31,707 nucleotides of DNA from a virus. Both the position numbers and the translations under genes were made by a program. Below, piece after piece: positions 1,772 through 9,414 of this stretch. The notes under the pieces were generated by a model that was not told the origin of the DNA, made no database searches, and saw nothing but the letters and a program-made list of their open reading frames with translations. Position 1 is the stretch's first letter. Each line of letters starts with the position of its first letter. The stretch lies in the UHGV virus genome UHGV-0209292, one strand, 5' to 3'.

Positions 1772-2797
1772 ATGATAAAACGCCAAAAGAAACAGCCAAA
1801 ACAGACCAACATGACCGCCAGCGCACCGCAGAAAATGGAGGCGTTCACCTTTGGCGAGCCGTCACCCGTTCTGGATCGCCGCGATATCCTCGACTATGTC
1901 GAGTGCATCAATAACGGCAAATGGTACGAGCCGCCGGTCAACTTCTCCGGGCTGGCGAAAAGCCTGCGCGCCGCCGTGCATCACAGCTCCCCGATTTACG
2001 TGAAGCGTAACATCCTGACGAGCACCTACATCCCGCATCCGTTGCTTTCACGGCAGGATTTCAGCCGCCTTGTGCTCGATTATCTGGTTTTTGCTAACGG
2101 CTATCTTGAGAAGCGCATGAGCGTGACCGGCCAGCTCATGAAGCTTGAAACCTCTCCGGCCAAATACACCCGCCGGGGTGTCGAGGATGGGGTTTACTGG
2201 TACGTGTCGGACTTCACGCACCCGCACCAGTTCGCCCCCGGCTCAGTCTGTCATCTGCTTGAGCCCGACATCAATCAGGAGCTCTACGGGATGCCGGAAT
2301 ACCTTAGCGCGCTTAATTCAGCCTGGCTGAATGAATCCGCCACGCTGTTTCGTCGCAAGTATTACCAGAACGGCGCGCACGCGGGTTACATCATGTACGT
2401 CACCGACGCGGCGCAGAGCAGCACAGACGTCGAGGCGCTGCGCTCCGCGATGCGAGACTCGAAAGGGCTCGGGAATTTCAAAAACCTGTTTTTCTATGCC
2501 CCGAACGGGAAACCGGACGGCATCAAGATAGTGCCGCTGAGTGAAGTCGCCACAAAGGACGATTTTTTCAACATCAAAAAGGTGAGCGCCGCCGACCTGC
2601 TCGATGCGCACCGCGTACCGTTCCAGCTTATGGGCGGCAAGCCCGAGAATATCGGCTCAATGGGGGATATCGAGAAGGTGGCGCGAGTGTTTGTGCGTAA
2701 CGAACTGACGCCGTTGCAGGAGCGTTTCAAGGAAATCAATGAATGGCTCGGTTTAGAGGTGATCCGCTTTAAGGATTACAACATCGAAACTGAGTAA
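1772..2797 (+). CDS. Q: Portal (capsid vertex) protein, P2 gpQ-like
   Basis: 341-aa ORF immediately after P and immediately before the cos site, the same arrangement as P2 gpQ (about 344 aa). Confidence 0.85.
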   Translation: MIKRQKKQPKQTNMTASAPQKMEAFTFGEPSPVLDRRDILDYVECINNGKWYEPPVNFSGLAKSLRAAVHHSSPIYVKRNILTSTYIPHPLLSRQDFSRLVLDYLVFANGYLEKRMSVTGQLMKLETSPAKYTRRGVEDGVYWYVSDFTHPHQFAPGSVCHLLEPDINQELYGMPEYLSALNSAWLNESATLFRRKYYQNGAHAGYIMYVTDAAQSSTDVEALRSAMRDSKGLGNFKNLFFYAPNGKPDGIKIVPLSEVATKDDFFNIKKVSAADLLDAHRVPFQLMGGKPENIGSMGDIEKVARVFVRNELTPLQERFKEINEWLGLEVIRFKDYNIETE

Positions 2798-2810
2798 CCC
2801 CCGCCTAAAT

Positions 2811-2826
2811 GCCGCCTCCGGGCGGC
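2811..2826 (+). terminator. GC-rich hairpin GCCGCC-TCCG-GGCGGC just after the Q stop; no U-tract
   Basis: Perfect 6-bp stem with a 4-nt loop 14 nt after the Q stop. No following T-run, so at best a weak or factor-dependent terminator, or an RNA-stability element. Confidence 0.3.
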
Positions 2827-2963
2827 ATCCTCTCAGAGCGAGCCAGACGCCGCACACGCGGCGCAACCACGCCAGCACCTCGTTAACCGACCGCACATAA
2901 CAGCGCGCCACCACGACGCGCACAGACGCGTAAAATAAATCCTGTCACCACATCTGGCGCGCA

Positions 2964-2982
2964 GTGCTATCCCCGCCTCGCC
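2964..2982. other. cos: cos cohesive-end site (P2/186 type)
   Basis: The + strand reads GTGCTATCCCCGCCTCGCC, whose reverse complement is GGCGAGGCGGGGATAGCAC. That is an 18/19 match to the P2 19-nt cohesive end GGCGAGGCGGGGAAAGCAC as I remember it. It lies directly downstream of Q, as in P2. Confidence 0.7.
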
Positions 2983-3114
2983 TGCCCGCTTGATGGGTCG
3001 GTTTTAATGCAATTGCACCAAGATGATGAATTGGTATCAGCCCTGGCTTTAGATACAGTCTACATACCTTTCAGACACATGCATATTCATGCACCCAGTA
3101 GATGCACGTCTAAA

Positions 3115-3930
3115 TTATTTGTTAAGACCTCGTAATTTCCCCATAAGTCCCTTCGACTTCTGCTCTTTATCCTCTTCTGATTTAAAAACAGAGTAGGTAT
3201 CAAAATCGAAAAAGGAAATGTTCTCAATCTCTGCCTTTGGTATTAGAACCCTAAAATCAGATAGTTCAAGATCAGATTTCCCGTTCAAAATCCCTGATTT
3301 TTCATAGTGTTCATTGTATTTTGTTGTGATGGTTATGGTCAGTTTATCCTTGTCACGATAACCACTCAGAAGGGGAAGCAGCTCAAGGTAGTCAAATGTC
3401 CCATGCTCAAAAGCCGGGCAAAAAACGAAACCGACATAAAATTTGCGTGATTTCAAAGTGGCAATAATTGGCATTTGAGTCGCGGATGCTTCCATAAGCA
3501 TATTCTCAAGCGCGTTATCTCCTACTGCTTTCACTAACGCATCAATCCTTCGATTAGCGTTTTTTAGCCAAAGCTTTTTTAATCCTCCAACAGTGTATGC
3601 CATCGCTAATGACATCAAACCACATAAGGCGAATTTTAGATCTCTGAAACGAGTGGCATCTTCTGCACTAAGTGGGAAAACTCGGCTGATGACATTACTG
3701 TCTGCACCAAAGAATTCGATTGCTCCGTTGACACCCCACCTTAAAAACCCAGTAATGCTTAGGAAAGAGCAAATCGCCCAGGATAAGGTGACGAAAAAGG
3801 TTCCCCATGCCGCAACTAAAAAATAAGCGTCCCAGCCCGTGGAACGCTTAAATTGATATCGGTCTGATAGAGACCTGATCACGTAGACATAACCACTGAT
3901 CAGGATAACCACTAAAAGCAAAGTATTCAT
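3115..3930 (-). CDS. Hypothetical membrane protein, 271 aa (accessory cargo): 2-3 N-terminal TM helices plus a soluble domain of about 150 aa
   Basis: Long ORF in strongly AT-rich DNA (about 37% GC by eye, against a 55-60% backbone). Hydrophobic stretches LLLVVILISGYVYVI, YFLVAAWGTFFVTLSWAICSFLSITGFL and LKFALCGLMSLAMAYTVGGL. Its start ATG overlaps the stop of the upstream 72-aa ORF (ATGA at 3927-3930). Confidence 0.7.
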   Translation of the reverse strand: MNTLLLVVILISGYVYVIRSLSDRYQFKRSTGWDAYFLVAAWGTFFVTLSWAICSFLSITGFLRWGVNGAIEFFGADSNVISRVFPLSAEDATRFRDLKFALCGLMSLAMAYTVGGLKKLWLKNANRRIDALVKAVGDNALENMLMEASATQMPIIATLKSRKFYVGFVFCPAFEHGTFDYLELLPLLSGYRDKDKLTITITTKYNEHYEKSGILNGKSDLELSDFRVLIPKAEIENISFFDFDTYSVFKSEEDKEQKSKGLMGKLRGLNK

Positions 3931-4145
3931 TTAGCTGAGGTCTTGGTTACCAGAAGTGCAATACTTTCAAGCTTATCCAGTTGCTTGACAATCTCTGCCT
4001 GTACATCTTCATTATCAAGGTTCATATTGATAAACCCATCATTGTTGATGTTAAAGCGATTTTTGTTTTTCTTCAGCACCCTGGACAGCCGATCCTGTGG
4101 ACTGCGTGCCGCCAGACTCTGCTTAAGCGCTAATGAAATGGACAT
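3927..4145 (-). CDS. Hypothetical 72-aa protein, first gene of the two-gene AT-rich cassette
   Basis: Very strong RBS GGAAGGAGGAAATT immediately 5' of the ATG on the - strand. A 4-nt ATGA overlap with the downstream 271-aa gene implies translational coupling. Charged and hydrophilic, no TM segment. Confidence 0.6.
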   Translation of the reverse strand: MSISLALKQSLAARSPQDRLSRVLKKNKNRFNINNDGFINMNLDNEDVQAEIVKQLDKLESIALLVTKTSAK

Positions 4146-4412
4146 AATTTCCTCCTTCCATCAAGATGGCGCAGAAGTATACGCATGTGTAGATGTTCCT
4201 TCAACTTATACTTCTATGACACATTTATCGGCAGTTTGTTGCCTTTTTTTAATTTAAATTAAGCTGAGTCGGCGATTTTGTGCAAGTCCCAAAGCTGAGA
4301 TCTGCTCGCTCTGTAACGCTCTCATGCACGCCTCAACCAAAGGAATACTCCTTAGATAAGAGTATCGAAACCAAGCCATTTTAGAAGGTTAATGTTACCA
4401 AAACGAGATATT

Positions 4413-5018: not shown

Positions 5019-7289
5019 TTACAACTTACTTCCAGCCGCTAACCTTGCCACGCGGCTAAGAATTTTTTTGGCTCGCTCCTGATTAGATGGCGCAGCCCTA
5101 AAAACTTCACCACTAGATGACCCTCTGCACCATTTACCACCAAATCGACTTTTTCCTCCCGCCATAAGATGCAGAGCCTCGCCCCGACTGATAGTTATGC
5201 CGGTGCTAATCTGGATTTCTTCTATTGTCCTGGCAACCGCGCCCCCCTGCTCGTCAGTTCCATGGACAAATCCACGTCTGGCGACCGGTTTTTTCACCCT
5301 GAGTCGGTTTGTTAATGACCGCTTTTCACTTCGGCTTAACGGTTTTGATAAATCCGGTTCAGGGGGATCGCTTTCGCTCCCCGTACAGTTATTGACAGAA
5401 CTCCGAGAGGGCGCAGGAGCGCCCTTAACGTCAACGGCCAAATCAACGGCACGCTTCGGCACAATTTTCCACTGCGTTAGCCGGGTTAAAATCGGGGTAC
5501 CAGCACCGACAGCGGAATCGTAAACGCCACGGATGCAGACGGTTTTCTCGCCATACTGATTAAAGTCGGCGCGCGGTTCATACAGCGTGCGCACCTGCAA
5601 ATCATCGCGACGGACAAACGGTCCACCCTGCATATTAACGTAACCAGCCCAGTCACCGGCGTCAGCGGCATCATGAACGGCGGCAAATTCAACGCTCAGA
5701 CCGTGCGCGGTCTCGGTATCGGCGAGACGACGCAATTCACGGTAGACCGTCACCGGCGCACCGCCGATAAACTGAAACTGACGGATGTGCCAGCGCGCCG
5801 CCCATGCTGATACAGCGGGGGCTGTCTCTTTCAGCAGCTCACCGCTTTCGTCATCGGTTTCACCATCAAGAGCATAGCCGTCGATATTTTTTGAAATGTA
5901 TTTAGCAACATAGCCGGTAGCGCTGCCTTTTTCCGGGTCAATGGCCTCGGCATGGAAGCGCGCTTTTTTGGCTTTATCGCTTCTCAGTTCGTTGCGGTCT
6001 TCCTCCCACGCATAATCACGAATGATGAGGCGCACGCGCTCGACGTCTTCCGGCAACATGAACATAAGCATGTGCCAGTGCGGCGTCCCGTCGTGATGAG
6101 GCTCGGCAACACGTATGCCAAAAATGCGGATTTCTTCCCGGTGCAGCTTGGCGCGAATGCGCGCCCAAAGGCCGGTGAGATAGCTCTGCGTGTCCGACGG
6201 GCTGGCACCGTTCCATTTGCTGTTACGGTATCCCGCTTTAGTCGTGGCGTGATATTTAGACGGTGCAGTCAGGGTGTAAAACTCCCCGACGTATCCGAGC
6301 TCATTGCAGATATTTTCAAACCCACGGATGCGGGTCATCAGCTCGCAGCGACGTATCGCTGGGTTGGCGACCGAGCCATCATATTTGTCAATCAGGCTGA
6401 TGCGGTTGCCGTCTTCGTCTTCGAGATCCAGCCCCTTGAGAAATTCGCGCGTGCGGCGCTTCTGCTCGCGCCAGTCAGTCACGCAGTTTTTACTCGCGTA
6501 GGCGTGTCGTTTCTTGCTGACGTTGCCGACTGCAATTTGCAGGTGTTCGCGCCATGCTGCCGCAGTGCGTCGCAAGCGACCACGCCACCAAACCTCATTA
6601 AACATGCGTGTTATAGCAGGGGCGATTTCATCCTCACTGGCATATTTCTTTGTCACCCGCTCCCAATGCGGCGGGGTAACGTTGAATTGCAGGGAAATGA
6701 AACCGGCTCGCATGTACCAGGTGTACAGCGTTTTGAGCTCGCTAAATCCGGTGTCATCAATGTCGGCCAGTTCAGCACGAATAAAATTTGCTATATCAGC
6801 GGCCAAAAGGTCGATATCGGCGCGCGACATATCAGGGAGACTGTTATATCTGGCAACCATATTGACCATGCGTGACGCCAAATACTGCATAAGCTCGGTA
6901 TCAAAATGACCGCCAAAAACAGCAGCTGATACGTTGCTTTTGATACCTGCACACTCGTATTTTTTTGCGACCAGCTCAAGACGTGGCAATGCCTTTTTGC
7001 AGAAGCTGATTAAAAAGGCATTGGCTCGTTGACTGCCCTGATTTTGCTCCAGCACCGCAGCGGTGCGATAAACGTCAAAGCGCACGCACTCGGGCTGGAG
7101 AGAAAGCACTTTTCTCGCATGCAGCAAAGCCGCGAACATACGATCGCGGCGTTGTTGTTGGTCATAAGTCAGGTATGGGCTTGCTATTGCCTGTTTTGGA
7201 AAATTCCATACAAAGGCATAATCAATCTCACCCGTAGCCTTTGCTGAGACAGGAGTGTCTATGACTTTATTCACTGAAGAAGATCCCAC
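5019..7289 (-). CDS. A: Replication initiator protein A (rolling-circle HUH endonuclease, P2 gpA-like)
   Basis: 756 aa (P2 A about 761). HUH motif EPHHDGTPHWHMLMF and the catalytic Tyr pair in GYVAKYISKNIDGYALDG, as in P2 A and phiX174 A. Apparent GTG start at 7289. Confidence 0.9.
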   Translation of the reverse strand: MGSSSVNKVIDTPVSAKATGEIDYAFVWNFPKQAIASPYLTYDQQQRRDRMFAALLHARKVLSLQPECVRFDVYRTAAVLEQNQGSQRANAFLISFCKKALPRLELVAKKYECAGIKSNVSAAVFGGHFDTELMQYLASRMVNMVARYNSLPDMSRADIDLLAADIANFIRAELADIDDTGFSELKTLYTWYMRAGFISLQFNVTPPHWERVTKKYASEDEIAPAITRMFNEVWWRGRLRRTAAAWREHLQIAVGNVSKKRHAYASKNCVTDWREQKRRTREFLKGLDLEDEDGNRISLIDKYDGSVANPAIRRCELMTRIRGFENICNELGYVGEFYTLTAPSKYHATTKAGYRNSKWNGASPSDTQSYLTGLWARIRAKLHREEIRIFGIRVAEPHHDGTPHWHMLMFMLPEDVERVRLIIRDYAWEEDRNELRSDKAKKARFHAEAIDPEKGSATGYVAKYISKNIDGYALDGETDDESGELLKETAPAVSAWAARWHIRQFQFIGGAPVTVYRELRRLADTETAHGLSVEFAAVHDAADAGDWAGYVNMQGGPFVRRDDLQVRTLYEPRADFNQYGEKTVCIRGVYDSAVGAGTPILTRLTQWKIVPKRAVDLAVDVKGAPAPSRSSVNNCTGSESDPPEPDLSKPLSRSEKRSLTNRLRVKKPVARRGFVHGTDEQGGAVARTIEEIQISTGITISRGEALHLMAGGKSRFGGKWCRGSSSGEVFRAAPSNQERAKKILSRVARLAAGSKL

Positions 7290-7854
7290 CCAAAGCCGCT
7301 ATGTTGATTTGATTACAGAGGTGACGGCTTTCGAAGCTACGAAAGAACCAATGAAGATCATTTCCGCATCCGACATGCTCGGCATTTGCGATGCTTTTCT
7401 TGCTGACACTCAATGCCACATAGCAGACCGGCTACCTCTTTCAATAGCTGGTCGGCGTGAGCTAGGTCGGAAAATTGAGTGGAATTGTCCACATAGCTGG
7501 AAACCACGCGAAGAATGGTCAACACATGTTCGGCACGCCTTACAAATTTTAAATCGACGTTATTTGGATACCCCAGTATCTCCACAGGATGACTGGCAGA
7601 CCTGGGAAGAACTATCGACAGATATTCATGTGTCGGCTCGCTGTGTTCGGCAGACTGTTGAGTTTTATCGCTCTGGAAATCCCCAGCATTTACCGATGTC
7701 GACTGAGCTTTTTGCTGTTCCCGAAGTTTTTTCAAAATTTGTAGCTTCGATTCTTTCGGGTGACATTCATCCTGTTTGGATGTGGCATGCTGACGCAGCC
7801 AAAACGCCGAAATGCTTTGATGGGCTTTATCCCAAATACACGCCGCTTTCTTAA
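7261..7854 (+). CDS. Alternative hypothetical 197-aa protein on the opposite strand of the same low-GC insert (candidate 2 of 2)
   Basis: Strong SD (AGGAG, 5-nt spacer) before the ATG at 7261. Globular-looking composition (W/C/H-containing, mixed hydrophobic and charged). It would overlap the first 29 nt of A and converge on the early operon. Only one of the two ORFs is likely to be real. Confidence 0.3.
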   Translation: MTLFTEEDPTQSRYVDLITEVTAFEATKEPMKIISASDMLGICDAFLADTQCHIADRLPLSIAGRRELGRKIEWNCPHSWKPREEWSTHVRHALQILNRRYLDTPVSPQDDWQTWEELSTDIHVSARCVRQTVEFYRSGNPQHLPMSTELFAVPEVFSKFVASILSGDIHPVWMWHADAAKTPKCFDGLYPKYTPLS

Positions 7855-7879
7855 GCTGGCTTAGTGGCCGGGTAGTCAT
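7358..7879 (-). CDS. Hypothetical 173-aa protein in the low-GC insert between the TraR-like gene and A (candidate 1 of 2 mutually exclusive ORFs)
   Basis: Co-oriented with the early operon. Its ATG overlaps the stop of the TraR-like gene (ATGA at 7876-7879) and is preceded by GGGGGG. The sequence is Q/S/K-rich with three rare Arg codons (CGA, CGG, CGG) at the 3' end, so it could be the antisense shadow of the + strand ORF. Confidence 0.4.
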   Translation of the reverse strand: MTTRPLSQLKKAACIWDKAHQSISAFWLRQHATSKQDECHPKESKLQILKKLREQQKAQSTSVNAGDFQSDKTQQSAEHSEPTHEYLSIVLPRSASHPVEILGYPNNVDLKFVRRAEHVLTILRVVSSYVDNSTQFSDLAHADQLLKEVAGLLCGIECQQEKHRKCRACRMRK

Positions 7880-8100
7880 ATCGCCCCCCGATAGTGTTTT
7901 AATTTAAGTTCGACAATTTGCTGGCAGGTTACGCAAGAGGCCACACCCGGAATCGCAATGCGGCGAGCTTCCGGGATTGGTGCGTCACATTCTTCGCAGA
8001 GAAAACGGGAAGGTGCAGCGATACGGCTACGCGCGTTGCTGATGTGGCGCTCGCGGTCTTCCTGCTCGCGCAGTTGTGCTAAATCCATTGCGTCGGCCAT
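7876..8100 (-). CDS. TraR/DksA-family C4 zinc-finger protein (P2 orf82-like)
   Basis: 74 aa with CEEC-x17-CVTC (two Cys pairs 17 residues apart), the typical phage TraR-like layout. It sits within the early operon upstream of A, as in P2 and 186. Confidence 0.75.
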   Translation of the reverse strand: MADAMDLAQLREQEDRERHISNARSRIAAPSRFLCEECDAPIPEARRIAIPGVASCVTCQQIVELKLKHYRGAI

Positions 8101-8327
8101 TAGTGCAGCTCCTGTGATTCATTCTCAAAGCGAGTGGCTTCACGGCGCAGCAGTTCGGCGGCTTCGATACCGCTCATCCCCTCTTTGGTGATATGTATCG
8201 CCAGTGCCTCAAGGCGGATGGAAACAGCGAGCGCGCGGTCTTTACGTTCTTCTTTTTTGGCATCGGTCAGCAATACGGTCAGCGCATCGCTATCTGTATT
8301 AAAACTACGGGTTACGATATTACGCAT
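8100..8327 (-). CDS. Hypothetical early protein, 75 aa
   Basis: Strong RBS (AGGAGAATAAT before the ATG). Its stop overlaps the start of the TraR-like gene. Conserved small early orf position of P2/186. Confidence 0.6.
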   Translation of the reverse strand: MRNIVTRSFNTDSDALTVLLTDAKKEERKDRALAVSIRLEALAIHITKEGMSGIEAAELLRREATRFENESQELH

Positions 8328-8394: not shown

Positions 8395-8733
8395 TTAATT
8401 CGGCATGGTTAGCCGTTTGGGAAATAAACTCACCACTGCACGAAAATGATTCATCGCTGTAATAAGCGCCTTTTTCTCGTCAGTAGTCAGCTCACTTAAT
8501 TCGAGCTCATGACGAGCCGCAGGGATTTTTGCCAGAAAGAAAATAGCGGCCAGCGCCCGATTATTTTCTTCAAATTGTGGGTCACGTTTATCGCGCATAT
8601 CATCGACAAAACGTTCAACCTCTTTCCAGCTATCGCCCCAATATCTCGCGCGCAATTCAGCCACATGATTGAGACCGGTCAGACGTTCACCCGCTTTTAG
8701 CGGAACAGTCGCGGAAACAGCTTCGATAGCCAT
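8395..8733 (-). CDS. Hypothetical early protein, 112 aa (186 dhr-position)
   Basis: ORF in the early operon between the cII-proximal small orf and the 75-aa orf. The function call is positional only. Confidence 0.5.
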   Translation of the reverse strand: MAIEAVSATVPLKAGERLTGLNHVAELRARYWGDSWKEVERFVDDMRDKRDPQFEENNRALAAIFFLAKIPAARHELELSELTTDEKKALITAMNHFRAVVSLFPKRLTMPN

Positions 8734-8904: not shown

Positions 8905-9414
8905 TCACATCAGACCGAATGAGGCACCGAGGCCGCTCATGGTGTCTACAACGCTTGTCATTGCCGGGTTAGCCTGAAGCCGCGCATGCAGCGCCAGAGC
9001 CGACAATGACAACATGCGAATGCCAGCATTTACGCTTTCAATCATGTTGTGCTTACGTGCAGAGGTCAGGCGCTCATTAGAGACCGCACCGCTTGCCAGC
9101 TCGCCGAGTTCACTCATTGCTCGCATGACATAAGACTGCAATTTGTCTTTAGCCAGCTCATTTACCGGCACGCACGGTAGACAATGAATCTGCGCCAGAA
9201 AACCATCAACAAGGGTTGAGTCTTCGGTCAGGTCAGTCAGTAGCCACAATTCAGGCGGCGTGAACTGGTGAGGCTGCTCGGGGTTGAGCTTGTTACGTAA
9301 CGTTTGAACATTCATACCCGTACGCAGGGCCAGCTTCGTCATATTGTGACGCTTCGCAAAAGCCCGGCACGCTTCGTCATAATGGGGATGTTTGGAAACC
9401 TGAAAATCAAACAT
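8905..9414 (-). CDS. cII: CII-like lysogeny-establishment activator (186 CII family)
   Basis: 169 aa, the same as 186 CII. Second gene of the lytic early operon after apl. The HTH-like segment is TKLALRTGMNVQTLRNKL. Confidence 0.8.
   Translation of the reverse strand: MFDFQVSKHPHYDEACRAFAKRHNMTKLALRTGMNVQTLRNKLNPEQPHQFTPPELWLLTDLTEDSTLVDGFLAQIHCLPCVPVNELAKDKLQSYVMRAMSELGELASGAVSNERLTSARKHNMIESVNAGIRMLSLSALALHARLQANPAMTSVVDTMSGLGASFGLM

Follow-up and report, generated by a model that had tools for sequence, protein, structure and literature searches.

A conserved pair of nearly coextensive reading frames on opposite strands of the PSP3-like early operon: a probable antiparallel dual-coding module

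The window analysed here is the whole stretch of 31,707 nucleotides of the virus genome UHGV-0209292, a PSP3-like prophage (Eganvirus, P2/186-type). In the slot between its TraR/DksA-type zinc-finger gene and its replication gene A, both on the minus strand, an open reading frame (ORF) of 173 residues on the minus strand faces one of 197 residues on the plus strand. The two overlap by 491 nt and are nearly coextensive. The original prediction, whose coordinates for both ORFs proved correct, called them mutually exclusive and took one to be probably the antisense shadow of the other. Neither view survives the comparison with diverged relatives: both frames stay open there beyond chance, each carries its own signature of constraint, and the minus product is conserved in 7486–7632. 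We conclude that the slot is probably an antiparallel dual-coding module, in which a single 491-bp segment would encode two proteins, one on each strand, with the plus gene as cargo and the minus ORF in part as a translated spacer. These comparisons give good support for selection on both frames. The elements on which the argument turns are:

7261 to 7854, plus strand: the plus gene (ATG 7261, TAA 7854), a predicted alpha/beta protein of 197 residues, antisense to the early operon and not annotated in PSP3.
7251 to 7255, plus strand: the Shine–Dalgarno sequence AGGAG of the plus gene, 5 nt before its ATG and within codons of A.
7358 to 7879, minus strand: the minus ORF (ATG 7879, TGA 7358), 173 residues, a homologue of PSP3 gp35/orf35, in the early operon and coupled to the TraR-like gene.
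7876 to 7889, minus strand: the initiation region of the minus ORF, with GGGGGG at 7884–7889, ATG at 7877–7879 and an ATGA overlap with the TraR stop at 7876–7879.
7486 to 7632, both strands: the putative dual-constraint core, minus residues about 83–131 (HEYLS[IL][VA]LP...VEILG...LKFVRRAEHVLTILRVVS) opposite plus residues 76–124, which include a variable loop of the plus protein.
7633 to 7851, both strands: the part dominated by the plus gene, minus residues about 10–82, rich in K/Q/E/S and predicted to be disordered, open but not conserved in sequence.

Do both frames stay open as the sequence diverges? We compared the DNA of 14 diverged PSP3-like lineages and of nine far ones (L037, L038, L051–L054, L056, L060 and L061), in which the plus protein is about 30–40% identical. 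In all of them the plus gene directly precedes A in a P2-like early operon and runs antisense to that operon. Opposite it the minus strand is open in the gp35-type frame in 21 of the 23 lineages and in a different frame in the other two (L051 and L053). Every full-length copy is open on both strands across the overlap, the exceptions being L011, with a nonsense codon in the plus frame, and L036, where a rearrangement has left only the first 100 or so codons of the plus gene (4001–4327) beside a rearranged cII-like ORF. The original prediction had looked to homologues that keep only one frame to settle which gene is real; apart from L011, the full-length diverged copies include none.

The two frames are related such that codon position 1 lies opposite position 1, while plus position 2 faces minus position 3 and plus position 3 faces minus position 2. 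In this relation the antisense open runs of 28 other long genes of the window extend over 29–88 codons; opposite the plus ORF the run has 164 codons inside that ORF, or 182 when counted between stops. How often would such openness arise by chance? Synonymous codons were permuted within each lineage's own gene, leaving protein and codon usage unchanged. At the window locus the minus frame was open with P = 0.005–0.008 and the plus frame with P = 0.001–0.003. Over 14 lineages the corresponding P for the minus frame was 0.0001–0.055 (median about 0.006), and that for the plus frame, given the minus protein, was at most 0.028 in each. Among the far lineages, P for an open minus frame was at most 0.008 in eight of the nine and 0.02 in L053. 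The coexistence of the two open frames is far beyond chance.

The two lineages that depart from the gp35-type frame are instructive. That frame is broken in L051, where another minus frame forms a 353-codon ORF across the plus gene (2550–3635, minus strand; P < 0.001), coupled to both neighbours. It is broken also in L053 (2979–3578 and 3443–3880, minus strand), where again another minus frame is open across the plus gene (P 0.02). Because L051 and L053 use another minus frame, no gp35-like product is made there, yet the operon strand is still translatable. This suggests that the translatability of the operon strand is itself under selection. Two marks of a shadow ORF, a length attainable by chance and interruption in diverged homologues, are absent from the minus ORF. 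A third, a translation that is always the less conserved and has its second codon position most variable, is seen in 7633–7851 and fails in 7486–7632.

The comparisons indicate that the plus ORF is a true gene, lying antisense within the early operon and under ordinary purifying selection. Its NG86 ratio of nonsynonymous to synonymous differences per site (pN/pS) is 0.23–0.33 at intermediate distances, and overall its third codon position is the most variable phase, with about twice the substitutions of position 1 or 2. When whole translations are compared, the plus product is more conserved than the minus product in every pair (0.80 against 0.62, for example, or 0.72 against 0.52). Full-length homologues of 196–199 residues were found by protein search down to 60% identity, and a profile search that covered 1.8 billion representatives added relatives at about 30% identity, in at least 13 further 50%-identity clusters. 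These distant members (186–228 residues) have in common the motifs RWP.SKE.R..LA, EW...IQ.AL, ETDIH, HLP..T..F.VP and VD..TP.C.G.YP.Y. A GGAG/GAGG-type motif stands at equal spacing from the plus ATG in most of the 20 lineages listed. The original prediction of an antisense-embedded gene in a slot of lower guanine-plus-cytosine (GC) content, preceded by AGGAG-N5-ATG and starting within the 5′ end of A, head to head with it, is thereby upheld.

AlphaFold2, given a ten-sequence alignment, returned a model of the plus protein with a predicted template-modelling score (pTM) of 0.72 and, in the core (residues 30–170), a predicted local distance difference test (pLDDT) of about 85–95. The best structural match of this model is HI1480 of Haemophilus influenzae (PDB 1mw5), a structural-genomics protein, with a Foldseek probability of 0.99, E = 0.023 and a template-modelling (TM) score of 0.42–0.49 over 177 columns; at a TM score below 0.5 it is a lead only, and it brings no functional information. 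A search of PDB sequences with the plus family profile found neither HI1480 nor anything else, and a search of BFVD with the model gave no match.

The minus ORF is a full-length member of phrog_21415 (E = 2.1e-114, residues 1–173 of 173), and its DNA is 95.9% identical to that of PSP3 gp35, which in PSP3 likewise lies between the zinc-finger gene and A. For the two products the PHROGs search yielded nothing beyond gp35, and no convincing match for either came from Pfam, NCBIfam or PADLOC. The earlier statement that neither product is recognisable thus stands for these three collections and fails for the minus ORF, given its PHROG family and its PSP3 counterpart. A weak PADLOC match of minus residues 89–136 to PDC-M28A (E = 0.008) was regarded as noise. 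The minus ORF keeps a length of 171–176 residues in all PSP3-like lineages and of 191–206 in the far ones, and protein search found homologues of 173–174 residues down to 54% identity. In every lineage the minus ORF has a Shine–Dalgarno sequence, and its ATG or GTG start touches or overlaps the upstream stop codon, also where the upstream gene is not TraR-like (L042, L044, L037 and L061). In the window the ATGA coupling to the TraR gene and the GGGGGG tract were seen as originally described, and so were rare codons in both ORFs (7.6% and 8.7%). In the far lineages the conserved minus motif reads EYL[ST][LIV].[LI]P ... [IV].[IV][FYL]G ... [RK][FY]..R...L[ST]IL ... D.[LV]L, and its replacements are conservative, typified by I/L/V, F/Y and K/R exchanges.

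If both frames are constrained, where along the overlap does each prevail? The codon-phase comparison below covers 12 PSP3-like and six far lineages. The codon is invariant in 26–30% of the plus columns in which the amino acid is invariant, compared with 7% for gene A in these genomes. Synonymous differences between identical residues are two to six times rarer in 7360–7632 than in 7633–7851 at equal amino-acid divergence, a regional drop with a Fisher p of 1e-4 to 5e-3 in several independent pairs, L037 against L038 among them. The synonymous differences per site (pS) of the plus gene are 0.26 in 7486–7632 and 0.58 in 7633–7851. Of the codons in 7360–7632, 13% are fixed rare plus codons (CTA, TTA, ATA and CGG), as against 2.7% next door. 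An A at the third position of such a codon places a T at minus position 2, and hence a hydrophobic residue in the minus product. Synonymous sites that carry no risk of a stop are invariant as well, as in ACA GAT ATT CAT.

The identity of the two translations shifts in the same region. In 7423–7620 the minus translation matches or surpasses the plus translation: its identity equals or exceeds the plus identity in 37 of 206 nine-codon windows, the longest run being 16 windows. Gene A and its same-frame shadow in the same genomes give 6 of 678 such windows, with a longest run of 2; where the identity of A is 0.25–0.7 the shadow never matches it, and the mean difference there is −0.22 ± 0.08. The periodicity flips too. 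In 7486–7602 the most variable phase is plus position 2, which is the wobble position of the minus frame, and this holds separately in the 12 PSP3-like and in the six far lineages. In 7603–7632 plus position 3, facing minus position 2, varies least of the three phases when all 18 lineages are taken together and likewise in the far six, while the phases are about equal in the PSP3-like 12. The regional pN/pS values are:

7486 to 7632, plus frame: 0.68 in PSP3-like and 1.02 in far lineages; minus frame: 0.60 and 0.78.
7633 to 7851, plus frame: 0.30 in PSP3-like and 0.50 in far lineages; minus frame: 1.61 and 1.37.

In 7633–7851 the minus identity is 0.25–0.37 against 0.5–0.65 for the plus product, and there is not one minus stop in 18 of 18 lineages, where the shuffles expect about two per lineage (P 0.02–0.2 each). 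The C-terminal half of the minus product (residues about 83–150) thus appears to be conserved as protein, at a cost to the plus gene in synonymous freedom and in loop residues. The N-terminal half, which faces the well-conserved C-terminal half of the plus protein, seems to vary freely short of stops, and we read it as a translated spacer. The two ORFs share 491 nt, each strand has conserved initiation signals, and the signs of selection can be assigned to each frame in its own right, as would be expected of an overlapping gene pair.

Several results weigh against dual coding. The constraint statistics are simple counts. The predicted fold of the minus product is poor (mean pLDDT 49, pTM 0.28), with only a helical hairpin reaching 65–70; a profile search for relatives of this protein outside the overlap found none; and the naive whole-gene pN/pS of the minus frame is about 1. 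On the plus side, only one of five AlphaFold2 models is confident, a consensus scan returned neither a sigma-70 promoter nor a convincing terminator for the gene, and the metagenomic contig L011 carries a TGC-to-TGA change at plus Cys76 (about 4226–4228) with its minus frame intact. The Rho-polarity rationale given below is drawn from general E. coli biology. Phage mosaicism could add to the regional differences in divergence, but it cannot yield the flip in phase. Recent recombination, considered as the cause of the insert's low divergence, may contribute; the phase flip and the frame-specific identity are left unexplained by it.

Might the plus gene be real and the minus ORF a mere translated spacer, guarding against Rho polarity or mRNA decay before A and yielding a functionless polypeptide? 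The unconstrained yet never interrupted N-terminal half, the use of a different minus frame in L051 and L053, the poor structure prediction and the whole-gene minus pN/pS near 1 are all as this explanation would have them. It does not account for the invariance of synonymous sites that are free of stop risk, for a periodicity that turns to the minus frame in 7486–7602, for minus identity above plus identity in the same region, or for the conservative replacements in the minus motif of the far lineages, and we consider it unlikely. The localised synonymous conservation and the clustering of fixed CTA, TTA, ATA and CGG codons could instead mark a nucleic-acid element within 7400–7632 of a real plus gene, be it an RNA structure, a protein-binding site in the DNA or rare-codon pausing in the plus mRNA. 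Over 241 nt RNAalifold gave −8.5 kcal/mol and a covariation term of −0.09, so neither a consensus structure nor covariation was detected; a search of Rfam with the region gave no match, and a repeat search gave no significant repeats. Nor would such an element predict a stop-free minus frame of 171–206 codons with conserved Shine–Dalgarno sequence and ATG, a three-base periodicity in the minus register, or I/L/V, F/Y and K/R exchanges in the minus translation. We regard it as improbable.

Least credible of all is the reading embodied in the PSP3 annotation and in many pipelines, which call the minus ORF alone: that gp35 is the sole gene and the plus ORF its shadow. The minus ORF is indeed co-oriented with the operon and coupled to it. 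Yet it is the plus frame that is more conserved in every whole-frame comparison, is under classical purifying selection, has kept its motifs in relatives at about 30% identity, and folds confidently in the best of the five AlphaFold2 models. Its openness given the minus protein is improbable in every lineage, and L051 and L053 have the plus protein without a gp35-like frame. We therefore give this reading almost no weight and retain the antiparallel module, with two proteins and a part of one serving as spacer, as the probable explanation.

How might such an arrangement have come about? In the lytic phase the early transcript, starting at the early promoter, would have to traverse some 600 nt of antisense insert to reach the essential gene A. 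Untranslated antisense RNA at this point would invite Rho-dependent termination, and expression of A would be lost. A minus ORF covered by ribosomes would block Rho-dependent polarity before A, so that only those versions of the cargo with a translatable opposite strand would persist. The minus ORF, once obligatory, may have gained or retained a functional, helical C-terminal domain. The plus gene would probably be transcribed from a promoter of its own in the 5′ end of A while the early operon is repressed, as in the lysogen, and one protein or the other would then be produced according to the strand that is transcribed. Antisense or transcriptional interference, as the original prediction suggested, may also arise where the plus start overlaps the initiation region of A head to head. 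It is tempting, though doubtful, to go further and see the pair as an orientation switch, with the plus product a protein of the lysogen (an exclusion or defence factor, for example), the minus product both a lytic-phase spacer that protects expression of A and, by way of its conserved C-terminal domain, a partner or antagonist of the plus product, and the choice between lysis and lysogeny toggling the strand.

The early operon and its surroundings in the window are as follows:

minus strand, ahead of cII: an apl/cox-like gene of the early operon.
8905 to 9414, minus strand: cII, early operon.
8395 to 8733, minus strand: an ORF of the early operon, DUF5347-like in relatives.
8100 to 8327, minus strand: a DUF2732 gene, early operon.
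7876 to 8100, minus strand: the TraR/DksA-type zinc-finger gene (PF01258 at 3e-9; phrog_54), the upstream neighbour of the minus ORF.
5019 to about 7274/7289, minus strand: replication gene A, early operon, after the slot.
7274 or 7289, minus strand: the candidate GTG starts of A, equally plausible, which give a head-to-head overlap with the plus gene of 14 or 29 nt respectively.
plus strand: cI and int.

From the stop of the minus ORF to the start of A there is a gap of only about 70–95 nt; in the gene calls of relatives A starts 81–84 nt past that stop. The 29-nt overlap of the plus ORF with A, as first described, holds if A starts at GTG 7289 and becomes 14 nt with GTG 7274. In the RefSeq record of PSP3, A starts at the equivalent of window position 7139 (L001 2940), although the frame is open as far as GTG 7274/7289 and encodes a P2-A-like N-terminus; the PSP3 annotation of gene A is probably some 45–50 codons too short at its start. 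A further ORF of 307 residues lies antisense to A on the plus strand (5952–6875), in the classical in-register frame and with 326 codons from stop to stop. Unlike the pair in the slot, it looks like an ordinary shadow ORF.

What might drive expression of the plus gene? The sole promoter lead is a conserved candidate −10 element:

7217 to 7222, plus strand: predicted −10 element CATAAT, within the A codons D-Y-A, about 40 nt before the plus ATG.

The longer sequence GGCATAAT at 7215–7222 is kept in nine PSP3-like lineages, at two synonymous sites of A among others. Two further observations concern the same part of A. Plus-strand positions 7129–7150 form a terminator-like hairpin inside A, GCCGCGAACATACGATCGCGGC followed by GTTGTTGTTG, immediately before the region of the candidate promoter. 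The block 7187–7222 on the plus strand, TTGCCTGTTTTGGAA..TTCCA.....AGGCATAAT, is kept in nine lineages; the palindrome TGGAA-N2-TTCCA within it coincides with the A codons W-N-x-P, and it may reflect the coding of A only or be a candidate regulatory site of the plus gene as well.

In P2/186-like phages the cargo carried between the zinc-finger gene and A varies. An E. coli 186-like prophage has nothing in this slot, SEN1 has DUF5405 and a queuine-tRNA-ribosyltransferase-like gene, and farther relatives have methyltransferase, RNase T-like exonuclease or ASH genes. The slot contents examined were:

L058: 2401 to 2496.
L059: 1381 to 2493.
L051: 3604 to 5057.
L053: 3443 to 5674.

Among the complete E. 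coli genomes searched none has the insert, and among the GenBank phages searched only PSP3 has it; three scans of viral contigs, each with a single protein, gave no hits. The GC content is 0.46–0.48 over 7100–7900 and 0.54–0.57 in A and the TraR gene. Both the description of the segment as an insert and the figure of about 47% GC, below that of the backbone, are thus confirmed. GC at third codon positions is low in the insert (0.40), in part as a consequence of dual coding itself. Like other morons or cargo of P2/186 early regions, the segment is an accessory insert of lower GC content between backbone genes, absent from close relatives and deviant in composition. A classical moron stands alone between a promoter and a terminator of its own. 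Every other cargo found in the slot is co-oriented with the early operon; the plus gene, unlike them, is antisense to it and wholly overprinted by an operon-sense ORF.

Overprinting on a single strand is familiar from the overlapping genes of phiX174 and from Rz/Rz1 of lambda, where one mRNA serves both frames. As there, one segment would here yield two proteins in different frames; unlike there, the messages are complementary and can never be one transcript. Nearer in geometry are the long antisense overlapping genes of bacteria: pop, antisense to ompA in E. coli O157:H7 (PMC7103648); olg1 and olg2 of Pseudomonas aeruginosa, for which constraint was likewise deduced from sequence comparison (PMC8850804); and laoB, ano and others (PMC5810103, PMC5960689, PMC9927249). 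The reality of the class is debated (PMC7457138; bioRxiv 10.1101/724807), and the known cases are described as young and taxonomically restricted, each inside an old ‘mother’ gene. The pair in the slot resembles them in that ORFs on opposite strands share hundreds of nucleotides and one is ignored by annotation pipelines. It differs in that both partners are full-size (173 and 197 residues) and nearly coextensive, in that the pair is kept across lineages at about 30% protein identity, and in that constraint is split by segments between the frames. It differs also in lying in a phage operon, where the choice of strand would be expected to follow the life cycle; the known cases, for their part, have expression data behind them.

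In public entries some 200 records call the minus ORF and some 180 the plus ORF a ‘hypothetical protein’ (Salmonella, Klebsiella and Citrobacter; clusters P0001 and P0013), and apparently none calls both. PSP3 gp35 (PHROG 21415) is of the same full-length family and in the same position as the minus ORF; its entry is a bare prediction that ignores the better-conserved plus gene. The PSP3 reference annotation thus lacks that better-conserved partner, and annotation pipelines differ from genome to genome in the strand they choose.

Long antiparallel overlaps in prokaryotes and their viruses are contested. The majority of candidates are young and poorly conserved, and their support comes chiefly from expression data. 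The comparative evidence here is unusually clean, with about 23 lineages of deep divergence, an internal control (7633–7851), an external control (gene A) and the flip in periodicity. The locus belongs to a genetically tractable Salmonella/E. coli phage system, and it offers a testable reason for the overlap, namely that an essential downstream gene must be expressed across an antisense insert. If this is true, antisense cargo might be tolerated in essential phage operons only where the opposite strand is translatable, a rule that would itself generate antiparallel overlapping genes.

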